Shown: one piece after another, positions 6,939-18,169 of the stretch
How positions within the stretch are numbered: the first letter of the stretch is position 1
Layout: each line of letters starts with the position of its first letter
Virus record (IMG/VR): IMGVR_UViG_3300025168_000066
Reading direction: 5' to 3' (one strand)
DNA length: 20,000 nt
From: an uncultured virus (IMG/VR IMGVR_UViG_3300025168_000066)
Taxonomy: Duplodnaviria > Heunggongvirae > Uroviricota > Caudoviricetes
Translations under genes and position numbers: made by a program
The notes under the pieces: model-generated
Seen by the model: the letters and a program-made list of their open reading frames with translations, nothing else
Told to the model about the DNA's origin: nothing
The model's database searches: none

Positions 6939-9900
6939 TTATATTTCTAATCCGTTAATTCCATCTATTGGTAATCCTCCTCTTTTAGTTTTATTTTGAT
7001 TAACAGCTCTAGAAGTTTGGATTACATCGTCATTTACAATATTACAATCTACACAAAAGCTAGTTACAAATGTATTAAATTTATCTAAATAATTGATATT
7101 ATTATGAAACGAAGTTATTTGAGCGTTTGATACACACTGTTGCCAATGTCCAGATTTTGCTCCTTGTGATGTTTCTGGATTCCAACATCCATTTGTACAA
7201 GAAACAGGAGCTGGTGTTACTTCATAAATTAATCCACTTGGCATTTTAATTACATCTCCTGAAAATAATATTGTTGATGGTACAAAAAATAAAGCTGGAT
7301 TTGTTATTGTAGTTCCTTGACCTGTTGTTATACTAGATCCTGGAGCACCTTGATCGTTTAATCCTGTTGAAGGTCCTCCTGTTACCCAGTTAGTATTACA
7401 AGTAGGAAGATTACTTGCTGTTGAGTTTGTTCCACTATCAGCACAATTGTAAATACAACTACTTCCTCTTTTACTTACAAGATATTCTATTAATAATACT
7501 TTCCAAGAATTTAATACAGAACAGTCATCTGCTTGCCCTGTAACTAGTTTATTGTAATATCTAAATCCATTTTTAGCTACACAAGCTTGTAATAAATCTA
7601 TTAAATCATTTGTGTTAGCAGGAATACAAGGATTTGCTATAACTGGGTATACACATGATCCATCATCTGTAGATGCGTTTGGATTAAAATTTAATGCGTT
7701 TGGATCTGTACAACCTGGATATAAACAAGACCCATCATCTAATACTGCAGTTGGATCAAAGTTTGTTGCATTAGGATCTGTACAACCACAATTTGCAGCA
7801 TTACTTCCTATTGAAAAATTTACTGTCTCTTCACACCCGTAGTTATCTGTAATTGTAAAGTAATAAACTCCTGGTAAAAACAATGAGTATGTATATGTGT
7901 TAAAATGATTAGGAGAATTAGCATTACTATGTACTGTTGGGTCTGCATATATTAATACTCCTGCATTAGTGTAATATGAAATAGTTTTACTTTGACCTGC
8001 CATTATTCCTTGTTGGAAAAATGTAGTAACTGTTATACTTCCATCAGGATTTGATCCTCCACAATTACCTGTAGCATCTGTAGTTACAAAAGTACTTGGA
8101 GTTCCTTGATTTTGTTGACTACATGGATAAAAACAACATCCATCATCTATTGTTGCTACTACTGTTTGATTTGCACAATTTTTATTGTAGTTATGTGCAG
8201 TAGGATCAGTACAACCTAAAACTCCATATATACATGAACCATCGTCTATAGTAGCTGCAGGATTATAATTTGAAGCAGTTGGGTCAGTACATCCATAAAT
8301 TGGAGCAGTACATGAACCATCATCACAAGTAGCTAATGGATTATAGTTAGTAGCTAAAGGATCCATACATCCGTAAATACAAAATATACAAGAACCGTCA
8401 TCACAAGTTGCAGCAGGATTATAGTTTAAAGCTAAAGAATCTGTACAGCCATAAATTGCACTAGTAATAGTAATAATAGCACTAGTTACTGTACAAGTAC
8501 CTGCACCAATATAATCTGATGTTAATGTTACTCTGTAGTTTCCATCATCGATAAAACTAGTTGGATTAATAAAAGAAGATTGTGTGTAAGTGTGCGTATG
8601 AGTTGGTGATGTTGGAGTTAAACTGTTTGTGTTTATTACTACCCAATTAGTACCATCAAAATATTCTAAATCCCATCTTATAAAAGCAGGTTGTGGAGTA
8701 CAGTTAATGCTTGTTACTATCTGATTAATATTACATAATCCTGCATTTGGATTTGTTAAAACAGGGGGATCACAACAAAAATTATTTATTACTGAACAAA
8801 GAGATGGATTTGGATGCCATAATCTAGGATCTGTAATAACTAATGTACCAGGAGGATTATTTGTATCTGTAACAGCTGTTGCAAAATTACCACTTTGATC
8901 TACACATACTTCAATTGGTATTATAAAATAAAATACTTGGAAACAATCTTCTACTTCTACTACAGCATCTGGATCACTAACTGCAACTTGTACAGCAAAA
9001 TATCCATAGTTTAAATTTGCTCCAGTAGTAGTTGTATTAAATGTAGTTGTCCATCCTAAATTATTATTATTAAGAGCTGCAGCATGTGCTGTAAAATTAG
9101 TTAAATCATTTGGAATAAGACTACTTTGAGCATTATCCCAATCAATCATACTATTTGCTTCAAAAAGTCTTAAAGTAAAATCTACATTAACAACTCCACT
9201 AGAATTAACAATATCATTTACATAATTTTGAAAATTTAAAGTTGGGGATACATTTTGTATTAGTACAGATCCATCATTAGAATTTGTTCTTTGTGTAGGT
9301 GTTGCAACAAATGAATTTACCCCAGCTACTGCTATATCTCCAGCAGTAGGAATAACATTACCACTAGAATCAATTAAAGTTCCATTAGATGCATGACAAT
9401 ATTCACATGAACCATCATCTATAACTGCATTTGCATTATAATTTAAAGCTACTCCACCATTTGTATTTGCAGTATTATCTGTACATCCTATAGCTCCTAC
9501 TCCATCTTGAACACAAACATCTATTGAATCAAAACAAGGTGTTGTTGTTCCTGATGCATTTGCACTTTCATCATACACATATATTCTATAACATCCTGCT
9601 ACTAATCCAGTACTAAACGCTCCATTAACTGTACTTGCAGGAACTAATATATTTGTATTACCTCCAACTGTTACATTTAAAGCATTACTACCAGCAAATG
9701 CTGTATTTTGAGGAGTTGTTACATTGTCTTGAGCTAAATTAATTCCAAACCCATATGTAAAAGTTCCTCCTCCTGCCCCAGTATTACTTCCTCCTGGAAG
9801 ACCACTTACACCACAAACTACAGTTCCTGAGCCTAAACCTCCAATAGTTTGACCATTTAAAGCTTGAATAACATATGTGTATTTTGCATTTCCTGTAAGA

Positions 9901-11483
9901 TTTCCAAGACTATCATATAAAGTAACTTGTATTGATCCATCAGTTCCTCCTAAAGTACTTGCGTGATTAACAAAATCTAAACTTAAAGTTAAATTATTAC
10001 AATCTGTACAACAAGATCCAGTATTCCAATTAGCTAATTGAGGATTAGTAATATAATTAACTCCATTAACATTTGTTAAATCCGTACTTATACAATCTAC
10101 ATATGTATATCCATAATAATCAGATGATGCTGGATCTAAACAAGCATCAAATGATACAGGGGGTGGAGGTGCTGAAGCACAGTTAGGTGTATTTTCTGCA
10201 TAAATATGTACTGAACCAAATCTAAACATATTACCTCCTCCTTGGTAAGGATTAAGAACTTGAGTAATATTTTGCCATGGCAAAACTGAAATACTATTTG
10301 CTACATAGTCATAAGCGTTACCTGTTATATTTAATTTTAACCAGTCAACTGGAGCAAGTGGTCCAATTGTTTGTCCATTATTAAGATTACCTATAATTCC
10401 TTTATAGTGTTGTTCTCCTGTTACATTTTCTGCAGGTGATCCTATAGCTCCAAATGAAAATGGATTATCATTTGTATCATAACTAAAATCATAATATCTA
10501 TAATTATTCCAAACATCATTAAATACATATCCTTCAGGATGAGTTGGTTGAATATCTACATGCCCAGGCATATTATATGCACCGTTAGGAATTACTTCTT
10601 TAAAAAATCCTGTAAATGCATAAGGATTATGACTGTTACCCGAGTATGTTACGTAGTTTAAAGATTGAGAAGTTAAAGTAGGGCCACCAATTGTAGCACT
10701 ATCTCCTTCACATGCATCAACTCTAGTATTATCTACATAAGTTTGATGATTTGAATACCCCATATCTAAATATGCAGCACCTGGAAGAAGTACATCAAAT
10801 TCTTTTTCGTCTCCACTAGACCAAGTAACTCTTATTCTACGATAAAATGCAAACTCTGGTAAAGCTGAAGAATTATTTTCATACTCAATATAATATCTAT
10901 TAGTACCTACATTACTACTAATTGATAAGCTTTGTCCAAAAGCAAGTGCTAAAGTTTTATTTTGAAATCCATCATCATAATTTAATCCAACTGGTAAATT
11001 ATAAAAAGTATTACCAGGAAGTACTGTTCCTTGAGGGTCTGTAAAATATGGGGCTCCTTGTCCTGGAGCTGTTACATCTTCTAAAGCTACTACTTGATCA
11101 AAAAATTGATTAATTACAAGAGATCCTGTATTAAAATCTTCGTCAAGTACATATTCATTAACATAAATTCTTATAAATGCTTGAGATCCACTTGACATGT
11201 GCGGACCTGCATGAAGATGTATATGCTTAGATGAATTTAAAGGGGGAGGTGCACCAAATGATTGGCTAAATCTCCCTAAAGTAGTTTGATTAGGATTACC
11301 TACATAAGGTTGTACTCGTAAGTATCTTTCTCCAGTACCCCTTACTGCTGTTCTTTCTGAGCCAGTATTTGTGTTTGTGTCTTGTGACGAAGAAGATGCT
11401 TGTTTGTTTTCTGCACTTTCACTACTTCCTACTGCCTCACCAGCCCCTTCACCACCACCTGACTCTTCTCTTGATGCACTCAT
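6939..11483 (-). CDS. Giant adhesin-like virion protein with SprB-like domains, GCTD/DDGSC repeats and a C-terminal helical Cys-containing (tail-hub-like) domain
   Basis: 1514 aa, no signal peptide, disordered N-terminus. Seven GC[TM]D...NY/F...DDG[SC]C repeats. SprB-like motifs ASTLGGTDGSIQVT, PTQRTNSNDGSVLI and DATGNCGGSNPDGSITVT...PGVYYFTITDNYGC. Confidence 0.78.
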   Translation of the reverse strand: MSASREESGGGEGAGEAVGSSESAENKQASSSSQDTNTNTGSERTAVRGTGERYLRVQPYVGNPNQTTLGRFSQSFGAPPPLNSSKHIHLHAGPHMSSGSQAFIRIYVNEYVLDEDFNTGSLVINQFFDQVVALEDVTAPGQGAPYFTDPQGTVLPGNTFYNLPVGLNYDDGFQNKTLALAFGQSLSISSNVGTNRYYIEYENNSSALPEFAFYRRIRVTWSSGDEKEFDVLLPGAAYLDMGYSNHQTYVDNTRVDACEGDSATIGGPTLTSQSLNYVTYSGNSHNPYAFTGFFKEVIPNGAYNMPGHVDIQPTHPEGYVFNDVWNNYRYYDFSYDTNDNPFSFGAIGSPAENVTGEQHYKGIIGNLNNGQTIGPLAPVDWLKLNITGNAYDYVANSISVLPWQNITQVLNPYQGGGNMFRFGSVHIYAENTPNCASAPPPPVSFDACLDPASSDYYGYTYVDCISTDLTNVNGVNYITNPQLANWNTGSCCTDCNNLTLSLDFVNHASTLGGTDGSIQVTLYDSLGNLTGNAKYTYVIQALNGQTIGGLGSGTVVCGVSGLPGGSNTGAGGGTFTYGFGINLAQDNVTTPQNTAFAGSNALNVTVGGNTNILVPASTVNGAFSTGLVAGCYRIYVYDESANASGTTTPCFDSIDVCVQDGVGAIGCTDNTANTNGGVALNYNANAVIDDGSCEYCHASNGTLIDSSGNVIPTAGDIAVAGVNSFVATPTQRTNSNDGSVLIQNVSPTLNFQNYVNDIVNSSGVVNVDFTLRLFEANSMIDWDNAQSSLIPNDLTNFTAHAAALNNNNLGWTTTFNTTTTGANLNYGYFAVQVAVSDPDAVVEVEDCFQVFYFIIPIEVCVDQSGNFATAVTDTNNPPGTLVITDPRLWHPNPSLCSVINNFCCDPPVLTNPNAGLCNINQIVTSINCTPQPAFIRWDLEYFDGTNWVVINTNSLTPTSPTHTHTYTQSSFINPTSFIDDGNYRVTLTSDYIGAGTCTVTSAIITITSAIYGCTDSLALNYNPAATCDDGSCIFCIYGCMDPLATNYNPLATCDDGSCTAPIYGCTDPTASNYNPAATIDDGSCIYGVLGCTDPTAHNYNKNCANQTVVATIDDGCCFYPCSQQNQGTPSTFVTTDATGNCGGSNPDGSITVTTFFQQGIMAGQSKTISYYTNAGVLIYADPTVHSNANSPNHFNTYTYSLFLPGVYYFTITDNYGCEETVNFSIGSNAANCGCTDPNATNFDPTAVLDDGSCLYPGCTDPNALNFNPNASTDDGSCVYPVIANPCIPANTNDLIDLLQACVAKNGFRYYNKLVTGQADDCSVLNSWKVLLIEYLVSKRGSSCIYNCADSGTNSTASNLPTCNTNWVTGGPSTGLNDQGAPGSSITTGQGTTITNPALFFVPSTILFSGDVIKMPSGLIYEVTPAPVSCTNGCWNPETSQGAKSGHWQQCVSNAQITSFHNNINYLDKFNTFVTSFCVDCNIVNDDVIQTSRAVNQNKTKRGGLPIDGINGLEI
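7653..8450 (-). repeat. GCTD/DDGSC repeat blocks (4 copies at 8133-8450, 2 copies at 7653-7787) flanking a SprB-like domain
   Basis: GCTDSLALNYNPAATCDDGSC, GCMDPLATNYNPLATCDDGSC, GCTDPTASNYNPAATIDDGSC, GCTDPTAHNYNKNC..DDGCC, GCTDPNATNFDPTAVLDDGSC, GCTDPNALNFNPNASTDDGSC; one more copy near 9405-9490. Confidence 0.92.
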
Positions 11484-12088: not shown

Positions 12089-12129
12089 AAAAAAAAGACC
12101 AGCAGGGGGATAATTCCCCCTGATAGTCT
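12089..12129 (-). terminator. Rho-independent terminator after the capsid-accessory genes
   Basis: Minus strand AGACTA-T-CAGGGGGA-ATTA-TCCCCCTG-C-TGGTCT followed by a T run (8 T including the last stem base). Confidence 0.9.
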
Positions 12130-14610: not shown

Positions 14611-15423
14611 TTATACTAATGCTAGTTCTTTTAGTTTAGCTCTTAATAATGTTAATTTACCAGAATTCTTTTTATCTTTTAGATAAATAACAGTATCATC
14701 TGTTGTGTCTCCAAGTATTTCATCAATAAAAATAATCTGATTTCCTATTTTTCTTAAAACTCCTGCTGATACCATTTCTTCGATTTCAGATTTTAGTTCT
14801 AAATGTTTATCTGTAACTATTCTAACAAATTTCTTTGGGTTAGAATTTTTAAATTCATATAAAGAATTTTCAATTTGTTCTAATGTCATTCTATCAGGAT
14901 TAGTATTAGCCATTAATCTTAATACTCTCTTCATAGATTTTTCATTAGATGAAACTTTAATAAATTCTTTGTCTGCATCTTTCTTAAGTTGAATTTCATT
15001 ATTCTTAACTTTATCATCTCGTGTAAGGTCTTGAATATAAAATCTTTTTTGAAAATCAGAATCCATTTCTTCTTTAGTCATTCCTACATGCGGATGTTTT
15101 AATGCAAACCTATATTTAATATAATCCATTATACTAATAGGAAAGTCATTTTCATCCATACCTATTTCCAGTTCTACTCCTGTAAATCCTACAGGTATTG
15201 TCATTTCTGCCCAATATTGTTTAGAATGTTTTGGCCAATCATTGTGCTCTGGATTAACATCTAATATTCCTAACATATATTTTTTTTCTTCTTCGGGAGT
15301 AAATCCTTTTAAGGGTTGTCTATTTACATAAACACTACTGAGTTTATATATAGCCTCAGCTCTTACTGCTTTAGGCAAATGGTTTAATAATTCCTTTTGT
15401 CTAATTGTTACTTTTTTGCTCAT
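14611..15423 (-). CDS. Conserved crAss-like protein encoded immediately downstream of the MCP
   Basis: 270 aa, basic and helical. Motifs YW..IPV, DYIKYRFALKHP, FYIQD, NPKKF, AGVLRK and YLKDKKN, plus synteny with the post-MCP gene of crAss-like phages. Confidence 0.7.
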   Translation of the reverse strand: MSKKVTIRQKELLNHLPKAVRAEAIYKLSSVYVNRQPLKGFTPEEEKKYMLGILDVNPEHNDWPKHSKQYWAEMTIPVGFTGVELEIGMDENDFPISIMDYIKYRFALKHPHVGMTKEEMDSDFQKRFYIQDLTRDDKVKNNEIQLKKDADKEFIKVSSNEKSMKRVLRLMANTNPDRMTLEQIENSLYEFKNSNPKKFVRIVTDKHLELKSEIEEMVSAGVLRKIGNQIIFIDEILGDTTDDTVIYLKDKKNSGKLTLLRAKLKELALV

Positions 15424-15450
15424 TTCAGTTCTTTTTTAAAGGTTAAGTTT

Positions 15451-15486
15451 GTTAGGAATAAAAGAATAACTCTCCTAACAGAGTTA
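15451..15486 (-). promoter_or_regulatory. Predicted H-type RNA pseudoknot in the leader of the post-MCP gene
   Basis: UAACUC-U-GUUAGGA-GAGUUA-UUCUUUUAU-UCCUAAC: S1 6 bp, L1 1 nt, S2 7 bp, L2 0 nt, L3 9 nt, all Watson-Crick. Ends 27 nt before the ATG at 15423. Confidence 0.62.
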
Positions 15487-15492
15487 GATTTT

Positions 15493-15534
15493 AAAATTAA
15501 AGCTATGGGGGATTGCTCCCCCACAACCTTAATC
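15493..15534 (-). terminator. Strong GNRA-loop hairpin after the MCP gene (leaky terminator or mRNA-stabilising stem)
   Basis: AAGGTTGTGGGGGA-GCAA-TCCCCCATAGCTTT forms 14 bp including G-U pairs, extendable to 18. It is followed by an imperfect U tract (TTTAATTTT). G-U pairs indicate minus-strand RNA. Confidence 0.75.
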
Positions 15535-15572
15535 AAAAACCAATATATAGACGCAAATTAATGCCTATAAAA

Positions 15573-17021
15573 TTATGACGCTACACACGTAATATCAAGC
15601 GAAGTATCAAATCTCTTAAGAGCAATACCAGCTGTTTTTAACATATGTACCGAAGCACCATCTACATCAGAAGCTCTAGATGAAGTTGAATCAAATCCTC
15701 TAGGGACTACAGATCCAGCTACACACCATCTCATTGCTTCACGACCTTTTTTAGAAATCATCTGAAGATTATTTTGACCATCATAATTTGACTGATCAAC
15801 AAATACCATTCTGTAAGATTCTAAAGAATATCCTGTTGTAGGGTGTTTTGCACGAGCTTGCGCCACGGCACCATGATCAAATAATGGTAATTTTACCACA
15901 TTGATCGTGTGTCCATCTACATGCTCATAGGAAGTGAAGTATCCAGTTAATCCTAGGTTACGTCCTGAACCTGTGATAAATCTGTTTTCTCCACCTACTT
16001 TCCAAGAATTAGCTGCTCCTGAAAAGTGATTTTTAAGAGCTTCATCGAATTCTCTTGCACCACCAGTACCAGTATATAAAGTTACTTGCTTAGTTGCTGC
16101 ATCTGTCATTCCGTAGAATAAGTCTCCGATTATGTTCTTAAGTTTAGTTTCAGTCATTGTAGAGTAAGTGTCAGTATTGACAATTTGCTCTAAAAGACCA
16201 GGACCTACAATTACTGGCTGTCCGTTTTCATCTTTCATGAAAGTTTGGCCATTTGAATCGTAAGTTTTTTGTCCATACCAGTAGTACATTTCACATTCTT
16301 CTTTAAAGTCTAACATGTGTAAGTACTCCTCGTAATCCATCCAAAGTTTAGTAGTAGATCCACCTTTAGTTGGTAGAGCAAATTCTGCTACAAAATCTTT
16401 AGCGTTTCCAGACATGTGGTAAGATTTTCTAACTGTAGTTAGTTTGTTTCTTACTTTACCTGGAGTTTCCCAATTAGAAGCATTACCTCTAGAGAAATCA
16501 ACTCCTACAGGTGCATACATTTGAGCCCAAAGAGCTCCGTTTGTAATATCTGCTGCTGCAACTGTTGCTGTTGCTGCTGGGTTAACTAATTGTAAAGTAT
16601 ACTTCCAGTTAGTACCTATTGCTTCTGGTTCTTTCATTATACGTGCTTGAGTACCTGCTTGAGATACTAATACGTATGGAAATACAAAATGTTTGTCAGG
16701 AAATTCAAGCTCGAAGCTTGCTCCTCCTAATCCTACATTTGTTGTTGATGCTGGTGTTACCGCTACTGGTCTCGTTCTCAATCTATGTGTTGCTACACGA
16801 TACTCATACTCTAAACGGTCAATAGACTTAGTATTACCAACACCTTCTGTTAAGAAAGATAGTGGGAATCTTTTATCGTCTTTTCCTGCTAAATGAGTAA
16901 TAATTGGAGAGAGTTCAGTTGGCTTAGATAACAATGCATTTGCAAGACTGTTCATATCAGTCATTTGCGAGTCATTGTAAAACGTCTTTTGAACGCTTAT
17001 GTTTGTTCCATTTACTGCCAT
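15573..17021 (-). CDS. Major capsid protein, crAss-like (Crassvirales) type
   Basis: 482 aa. Motifs NKLTTVRKSY, ECEMYYWYG, GPGLLEQI, LYTGTGGAREF and GYFTSYEHVDGHTINVVKLPLFD match crAss-like MCPs as I know them. Flanked by an acidic scaffold-like gene and a strong hairpin. Confidence 0.9.
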   Translation of the reverse strand: MAVNGTNISVQKTFYNDSQMTDMNSLANALLSKPTELSPIITHLAGKDDKRFPLSFLTEGVGNTKSIDRLEYEYRVATHRLRTRPVAVTPASTTNVGLGGASFELEFPDKHFVFPYVLVSQAGTQARIMKEPEAIGTNWKYTLQLVNPAATATVAAADITNGALWAQMYAPVGVDFSRGNASNWETPGKVRNKLTTVRKSYHMSGNAKDFVAEFALPTKGGSTTKLWMDYEEYLHMLDFKEECEMYYWYGQKTYDSNGQTFMKDENGQPVIVGPGLLEQIVNTDTYSTMTETKLKNIIGDLFYGMTDAATKQVTLYTGTGGAREFDEALKNHFSGAANSWKVGGENRFITGSGRNLGLTGYFTSYEHVDGHTINVVKLPLFDHGAVAQARAKHPTTGYSLESYRMVFVDQSNYDGQNNLQMISKKGREAMRWCVAGSVVPRGFDSTSSRASDVDGASVHMLKTAGIALKRFDTSLDITCVAS

Positions 17022-17070: not shown

Positions 17071-18150
17071 TTAAATATTAAGATCTAAACTATCTAAATC
17101 AAAACTTTTACTTCGTCTTGATTGTTTACGAGCACTTTTTACAGTCTCTTCATTTTTAGATATTTTTTCTCTCAATGTCTTCGTAGCCGTTGTTTTAGCT
17201 TTCTTGTTAATTATTTCTTCTAGATTAAATCCTTTATACATTAAATAATCTATAGCTAATTTTTGTTCCATTTCAGCTTTAGAGTGATCTACATCACGCT
17301 GTGTGTAACCATCTTTAGTTACTGGCTTCGAAAGATAGTTAAAGAATTTTGTTTTTTCTCTTTCTGGAACTTGCAATCCTGCAAATTCTTTTGATTCTTT
17401 AATTGTCTCTTGCACGCCATTCCAAAACTCTACTTGTTTATCTTGCTCTTCTTGTAAAGATTGTTGTTGACGTGTTACTAATTGTTCTTTTTCTTGCGCT
17501 TGTACTTTACCTAAAGCTTGTCTAGCTGCTTCTGCTTTATTATGTAACTTACCAGAATCTTCATAATCTTCAAGCATTTCTTTAATAAAACTTTCATCAT
17601 GTCCTTTTTGATAAAAGTAATCAGATAAAATTGCTTTTTGACTTCTTGAATCATCTTCAGAAATTTGCATCTCATTATAATCTAAATTTGGATCATAAGC
17701 TGTCATAAATTTTTGAGATTCTCCTCCAGCTAATACATAATCTAAATGTTGTTTAACTAATGGAAATTTTTCAAGAACTTCATCAATTCTATCATCTGCC
17801 ATTTGAGAAGCTACATCTTTAGTCATTTCTGTTAATCCTTCAGCTGTATCTGCATAATCACCTTCATACCCTAAAGTATTTAGTATTTCTGATACAACTG
17901 TAGTTTCAGAACTTTCTTCTTCTGTTTCTTCTTTTTCTTCTACTTCTTCTTCTTCTTTTTCTTCTTCAGCCTCTTCGTCATTATCTTCAATGTCTTCAAG
18001 TTCTGCTTCAGGTTTTTCTACTTCTTCTTTTACTTCTTCTGTTGCTCCTTCAATAGGTTCTATTTCGTCAATAGCCTCCATTGTAACTCCATCACCAATG
18101 ACATCGTCAAAGGTAATATCGTCTAATTGTATTTTTTCATTTGGGTCCAT
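17071..18150 (-). CDS. Acidic scaffold-like protein upstream of the MCP
   Basis: 359 aa with a very Glu/Asp-rich N-terminal 85 aa, coiled-coil middle and basic C-terminus. Syntenic with the conserved acidic pre-MCP gene of crAss-like phages. Confidence 0.72.
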   Translation of the reverse strand: MDPNEKIQLDDITFDDVIGDGVTMEAIDEIEPIEGATEEVKEEVEKPEAELEDIEDNDEEAEEEKEEEEVEEKEETEEESSETTVVSEILNTLGYEGDYADTAEGLTEMTKDVASQMADDRIDEVLEKFPLVKQHLDYVLAGGESQKFMTAYDPNLDYNEMQISEDDSRSQKAILSDYFYQKGHDESFIKEMLEDYEDSGKLHNKAEAARQALGKVQAQEKEQLVTRQQQSLQEEQDKQVEFWNGVQETIKESKEFAGLQVPEREKTKFFNYLSKPVTKDGYTQRDVDHSKAEMEQKLAIDYLMYKGFNLEEIINKKAKTTATKTLREKISKNEETVKSARKQSRRSKSFDLDSLDLNI

Positions 18151-18169
18151 ATATATTGGTTTTAGTTTA

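Follow-up and report, generated by a model that had tools for sequence, protein, structure and literature searches.

An operator-like pseudoknot, conserved and previously undescribed, in the leader of crAss gene 75, with a likely competitor in one lineage

Which RNA structure in the leader behind the major capsid protein (MCP) gene has been kept by selection, and what does it do for the gene that follows? The window, a 20,000-nt stretch from an uncultured marine crAss-like phage of the Caudoviricetes (IMG/VR record IMGVR_UViG_3300025168_000066), holds in this leader a 36-nt segment that a sequence-only reading had described as a perfect H-type pseudoknot (stems S1 and S2) and proposed to be a translational operator or a nuclease-blocking 5´ structure. 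We find that the leader carries a conserved, previously undescribed pseudoknot of operator-like design, in which S2 (here P1) is combined with another stem, P2. The S1/S2 knot appears to be a lineage-specific competitor that was misread as the main element.

The description of that first knot was accurate. All 13 Watson-Crick pairs were confirmed on the minus strand (UAACUC with GAGUUA in S1, GUUAGGA with UCCUAAC in S2; strands in Table 1), as were the single-nucleotide L1 (U15480), the 9-nt L3 (15466-15458) and the 27 nt to the ATG at 15423, and U15480 could also pair with A15450 to give an S2 of 8 bp. In a scan for perfect H-type knots with at least 13 Watson-Crick pairs, stems of at least 6, an L1 of 1-2 nt and at least 4 G/C, criteria that were chosen after the finding, it was the only match on either strand of the window, and 25 dinucleotide shuffles gave one (mean 0.04). 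What had been overlooked is that UUCUUU within L3 is complementary to AAAGAA at 15434-15429. The latter lies in the stretch before the start that had been taken for an A/U-rich spacer, which has the length given for it but is not unstructured, since it carries the 3´ strand of P2, a stem that covaries.

Table 1. Features of the gene-75 leader and its surroundings in the window
Feature	Position	Strand	Remarks
S1 5´ arm, UAACUC	15481..15486	-	lineage-specific; in 9/147 leaders, invariant; -8.4 kcal/mol; predicted anti-operator helix with GAGUUA
P1 5´ strand (first-described S2), GUUAGGA	15473..15479	-	covariation
Loop segment, GAGUUA	15467..15472	-	L1 of the conserved knot; S1 3´ arm of the first-described knot
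P2 5´ strand, UUCUUU	15461..15466	-	five pairs Watson-Crick in 147/147; covarying pair U-A 128, A-U 19
P1 3´ strand, UCCUAAC	15451..15457	-	covariation
A-rich L3, UAAY motif at 15445-15442	15435..15450	-	UAAY in 140/147 versus 75 in shuffles (leaders related, not independent)
P2 3´ strand, AAAGAA(CU)	15427..15434	-	-11 to -6 here; -13/-8 or -14/-9 in 125/147; translation initiation region
MCP gene, crAss-type, 482 aa	15573..17021	-	PF23898, E 1.4e-83; phrog_11589, E 4.2e-93; upstream of leader
ORF assigned as crAss gene 75 homologue, 270 aa	14611..15423	-	N-terminal domain of unknown fold; weak SAP/HeH-like middle; RecA-CTD-like C-terminus
Small hairpin 3´ of MCP stop, GCA-UUAAUU-UGC	15553..15564	-	co-varying stems in relatives, judged by eye
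18-bp hairpin, GCAA tetraloop	15495..15534	-	z -5.4 for the 160-nt region

Loci for comparison were gathered by protein search and by DNA pattern search. Left out of the counts were L079 (no leader), L112, 22 pattern matches that lacked gene 75, loci in which the start of the gene was not covered, and duplicates; all 147 distinct leaders could be anchored, and gut and distant loci were read apart from these. The core pattern had at least 120 matches, with about 240 stretches estimated in the collection. Among the 120 listed, 119 precede gene 75 and 118 directly follow the MCP gene, and the phage's own 74-kb record contains one copy of the element. In cellular genomes (GTDB, 185,579) there were no real copies, the five pattern matches there being due to chance: none has P1 and most lie in coding frames. 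A further pattern search gave 41 matches, of which 19 lie before gene 75, 7 fall in a repeat region that is unrelated and belongs to a different type of phage, and the remainder are chance-like. L246, L247, L253, L259 and L263 carry, around 1000-1300, a non-coding TATAAAGAAT repeat array and a long inverted repeat; these are unrelated phage contigs and a chance match to the pattern.

The shared layout consists of the P1 5´ strand, a 15-nt loop (GAGUUA-UUCUUU-ACA), the P1 3´ strand, an A-rich linker with UAAY, and AAAGAAC, with the AUG 2-10 nt further on. At the level of sequence comparison, the P1 and P2 helices, their covariation, their position and their tie to one gene are established. The P1 hairpin and the UUCUUU/AAAGAA match were kept in 147 of 147 distinct leaders. 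Covariation in P2 is confined to one pair, which is swapped without a single mutant, and the sixth P2 pair is formed in 131/147. Covariation of S2, that is, of P1, had been put forward as a check and was found, as the top pair takes all four Watson-Crick types (A-U 53, G-C 40, C-G 8 and U-A 6, with G-U or U-G in 9 leaders and a non-canonical pair in 31). On a tree of 112 gp75 proteins (FastTree), the P2 swap sites underwent 11 changes each, a count that recombination of a linked block may inflate, given that leader types are scattered over the tree, so that the double change may have arisen fewer times; 7 of 7 independent pairs agree (p 0.016). For the P1 top pair, 11.8 of 15 pairs on the tree were the same versus 1.2 opposite (p 0.003). 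As the pattern used to choose 161 of the loci requires the loop, a check was made on the 54 leaders that protein search alone had found: 99.1% of their P2 cells are paired (U-A 45, A-U 9), and the covariation score is 0.171 versus at most 0.071 when slid.

P1 differs among relatives. In the sister clade, whose gp75 is about 49% identical, the loop and tail are kept and P1 has other stems, such as CUGAG/CUCAG and CAGG/CCUG, and another subclade has AGGC/GCCU and GGGU/ACCC. The best P1 reaches at most 3 bp in 71/129 leaders, so the knot is likely to need a partner; that it forms in some state is very probable. In GAGUUA, the final U and A are present in 147/147 leaders and the extension can form G-C or G-U in 127/147; the AG of this segment may pair with CU at 15428-15427, with UUA bulged. 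We infer that L3 contacts the minor groove of P1. Pairing of AGUUA with UAAYU in L3 was considered and rejected: it is enriched (118/147 versus 30), yet L3 ignores the loop variants in most of the nine cases listed, and we therefore read the complementarity as a sequence motif. In the subclade with the leaders L371, L373 and L375-L378, GAAAGG or GAAUGG stands 3´ of the P1 3´ strand, and CCU-GAAA-GG is possibly a small competing hairpin, another anti-operator.

The position of P2 suggests what its closure would do. Ahead of the phage's 50 long ORFs, A peaks at -13 (0.72), -12 and -3, and a Shine-Dalgarno-like word occurs in 1/50. Adenines at -14 to -11 serve Bacteroidota in place of a Shine-Dalgarno sequence, and in F. 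johnsoniae they promote initiation, four-base substitutions reducing output by 60-90% (PMC6847099). The A peaks and the near-absence of Shine-Dalgarno words match this pattern, from which we infer that the host belongs to the Bacteroidota. The 3´ strand of P2 overlaps -14..-11 in 138/147 leaders; since P2 thus covers the initiation adenines, its closure would repress gene 75, and control of gene-75 translation by the P1/P2 knot is probable. The earlier idea of an operator in the leader is supported insofar as the operator is pseudoknotted, but the conserved knot joins S2 to a second stem other than S1.

The 270-aa ORF is, by homology and synteny alike, the crAss gene 75 homologue. Its product resembles that of the gene after the MCP of gut crAss phages (22-31% identity, tblastn E 3e-9), a match in OQ198719.1 carries the label 'gene75', and the gene lies between the MCP gene and gene 74; the ORF next after it weakly matches crAss ring proteins (PF25710). 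The closest annotated MCP, the best of 146 annotated matches, is only about 31% identical, so the clade is without a close annotated relative. The core marker genes of crAss phages include gene 75, which to our knowledge has no known function. Many RefSeq crAss records call it 'RecA protein', a misleading label given that the RecA likeness is limited to the last ~60 residues. It is given as a putative structural protein in PMC7886860; the virion atlas (PMC10172136) does not name gp33, probably the crAss001 orthologue of gp75, anywhere in its main text, so this role is not established. Matching contigs came from RNA libraries of marine origin and span the element without differences (15155-15568 in X1, 15441-16088 in X3), although such contigs give neither strand nor single-transcript status; none among them shows a single transcript, and their depths cannot rank the MCP gene against gene 75. 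The 18-bp hairpin between the genes is likely a leaky terminator or an mRNA-end stabiliser, and distant relatives without the pseudoknot also have a hairpin at this place. The stem of the small hairpin closer to the MCP gene varies (GCA/UGC, GCAA/UUGC, GCG/CGC, CACG/CGUG), and the sister clade is without it.

We suggest, at what we judge to be a little under an even chance, that the leader knot is a repressive translational operator clamped by gp75 itself. Read-through of the post-capsid hairpin would deliver the leader, and the knot, with a P1 often of 3 bp, would on its own be marginally stable, with the open state as the default. As gp75 accumulates, it would bind the conserved loop and the bulge, and P2 would close, hiding the adenines required by Bacteroidota ribosomes and repressing gene 75. 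The same covariation and position would be expected of a static attenuator, in which P1/P2 folds free of ligand and fixes a low ratio of gp75 to capsid, the conserved loop bases making tertiary contacts, and a conserved A-rich L3 with UAAY suits such a self-contained fold. We consider this unlikely, as the short P1 of so many leaders and a P2 of -6.2 to -7.1 kcal/mol seem too weak alone, and a competing S1, invariant in nine leaders, better suits a switch.

For the operator reading, gp75 is the candidate ligand, an assignment that we make tentatively and at not quite even chances. Its predicted fold is confident (pLDDT 93). The C-terminus is RecA-CTD-like (Z 7.2, rmsd 1.5, 61 residues, where Z below 8 can reflect a common arrangement), and residues ~140-210 have weak SAP/Rho-N-like structural matches (Z 4.0-4.8). 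Foldseek matched gp75 to a phi14:2 protein (E 4e-12) and gave no match in the PDB at E 0.001, and the best ESM Atlas match of residues 1-135 (0.78) is unnamed. Some observations count against the operator reading with gp75 as the clamp. RecA-CTD and SAP folds are known DNA binders, and gp75, previously called basic, is only mildly so, its charge being near neutral (pI 8.7; 46 K+R versus 43 D+E). In addition, gene 75 stands without the element in 8/8 gut crAss phages and in 7/7 distant loci (26-43% identity, 5 distinct), as judged by eye and MFE fold; scans for distant gene-75 loci with P0125 and P0128 yielded none, two broad alignments gave no usable pattern, and several gut and distant loci keep only the long hairpin. 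The ligand could instead be the capsid protein in its free form, the scaffold (gene 77) or an RNA-binding protein of the host, which would couple gp75 to head assembly and would fit an element directly 3´ of the capsid gene in nearly all matches listed. This seems to us quite unlikely, with candidate nucleic-acid-binding modules in gp75, the protein examined for them, and with mimicry of a host site unsupported by any copy in cellular genomes.

How S1 fits with the operator reading is a separate question. Covariation of S1 could not be found: its 5´ arm never covaries in the nine leaders that have it. All nine carriers have a 7-bp P1, and the arm needs 4 changes on the gp75 tree. Across these nine, 26 of 26 stem positions are invariant beside an L1 that is U, A, C or G, an L2 of three forms and a variable 5´ flank, which suggests selection on S1; in L088 (74% gp75 identity), S1 is lengthened to 7 bp. 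S1 is slightly stronger than P2 and is transcribed first. Geometrically, forming both stems at once would place 12 of the 15 bases in the loop within helices, and S1 and P2 therefore likely compete. In the window's sublineage, the 5´ arm would capture GAGUUA first, forming an ON knot on the 7-bp P1 that must be displaced before the OFF knot (P1/P2) can form. The stability and early transcription of S1, like the invariance of its stems, would also suit the model of the sequence-only reading, in which the S1/S2 knot itself does the work, as a nucleation site of the gene-32 type or as a block to nucleases at the 5´ end, P2 then being incidental. That model is very unlikely to hold, since the arm is missing from 138/147 leaders, S1 does not covary and P2 is intact in 9/9 carriers; for a nuclease-blocking structure nothing was found in support.

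The repressive operator that we favor shares features with several known systems. The E. coli rpsO (S15) leader has a marginal pseudoknot that is in equilibrium with an alternative fold and is stabilised by its own product. The gene-75 leader would resemble it in its marginal knot, alternative fold and own-product clamp; unlike rpsO, gene 75 is not ribosomal, and no Rfam leader family matched. With gene 32 of T4 and RB69 (PMC535899), it shares an H-type knot in a phage leader 5´ of the start, with UUAAA/UAAA-like runs behind it, and autogenous repression by a nucleic-acid-binding product is what we propose here for gp75. The T4 knot, however, lies wholly upstream, with more than 40 nt including the ribosome site less structured, whereas the second stem here pairs with the initiation region (PMC535899). 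The likeness to gene 32 geometry drawn earlier thus holds for the 1-nt L1, found in the window and 8 other leaders, but not for an unpaired stretch before the start. A gp32-like fold was not among the matches of gp75 (crAss gene 75, RecA-CTD, weak SAP-like), in a comparison that barely extended to the N-terminal 130 residues.

The plan of the element is that of preQ1-I, described in PMC11625349 as a compact H-type knot whose L3 is rich in A and whose second stem occludes the ribosome site. The site masked here is the Bacteroidota A-run; in preQ1-I it is the Shine-Dalgarno sequence. The leader knot is also without the C before the P1 3´ strand (as UC or AC) and the U starting L1 that preQ1-I has (PMC11625349), and it is not associated with queuosine genes. 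At the site of C-specificity, the base before the P1 3´ strand is A in 138/147, and the next is C in 66, U in 63, G in 10 and A in 8 and covaries with its pair; the first loop base is G in 131 and U in 4 of the 147 leaders. That the element is a riboswitch of a new class, in which two exclusive knots on one hairpin are flipped between ON and OFF by a metabolite or signalling nucleotide whose binding buries the Shine-Dalgarno-free initiation adenines, is highly improbable, for although the element recalls preQ1-I (PMC11625349) in its size and H-type fold, in the invariant bases of its loop, in an L3 rich in A and in a second stem that lies over the ribosome site, and although the two-knot version supplies an expression platform, it precedes a single, non-metabolic phage gene, has no real match in the 185,579 genomes, lacks the preQ1-I bases and stays below the Rfam threshold. 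The gene-75 element is thus like the operators of T4 gene 32 and rpsO, has the plan of preQ1-I and belongs to neither group.

The expectation that no such element had been described at this locus was borne out in the sources searched. Rfam 15 gave no match at the gathering threshold for the whole window or a 171-nt region; the 171 bases had 23 weak matches, the best at 23.6 bits versus 57 required (RmaA). The Rfam matches, taken up to E 10, did not include the Mu-gpT-DE motif (RF03012), which has no mention in the main text of PMC5737381. A search of literature listings found no description of a pseudoknot, structured RNA or riboswitch in crAss-like phages, and none of RNA-level control in them. 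In one study, IMG/VR was mined for >10,000 RNA candidates (PMC10690425); its main text has no mention of crAss and its tables lack the core word, the supplementary alignments lying outside this comparison, and the hairpin part of our element may be an unnamed candidate there.

A covarying operator at the start of gene 75 makes it possible to test directly whether gp75 is an RNA-binding protein that limits its own dose. If our reading is correct, repression in Bacteroidota could work without Shine-Dalgarno pairing, by hiding the adenines at -14 to -11, and the nine-member sublineage would be a natural experiment in which a second, competing pseudoknot was added to the operator.

Other features of the window deserve mention. 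Conserved TATATATTGGTTTT (15549-15536, minus strand), 3´ of the MCP stop, is complementary over 14 bp to the start region of the scaffold gene (gene 77) at 18150-18163, 2.6 kb upstream. In relatives this pairing has a mean of -10.0 versus -6.1 kcal/mol in shuffles, with p 0.08 for own versus swapped partners and a median rank of 8.5% among windows; through it the scaffold-MCP mRNA could be closed as a loop, or TATATATTGGTTTT could be a promoter-like word. A strong terminator-like hairpin 3´ of the 125-aa gene (12103-12122, minus strand) probably ends the head-gene transcript. Also on the minus strand, 3-1805 and 6939-11483 encode two large proteins that contain many GCTD-type repeats with cysteine, as is typical of adhesin-like or fibre proteins.
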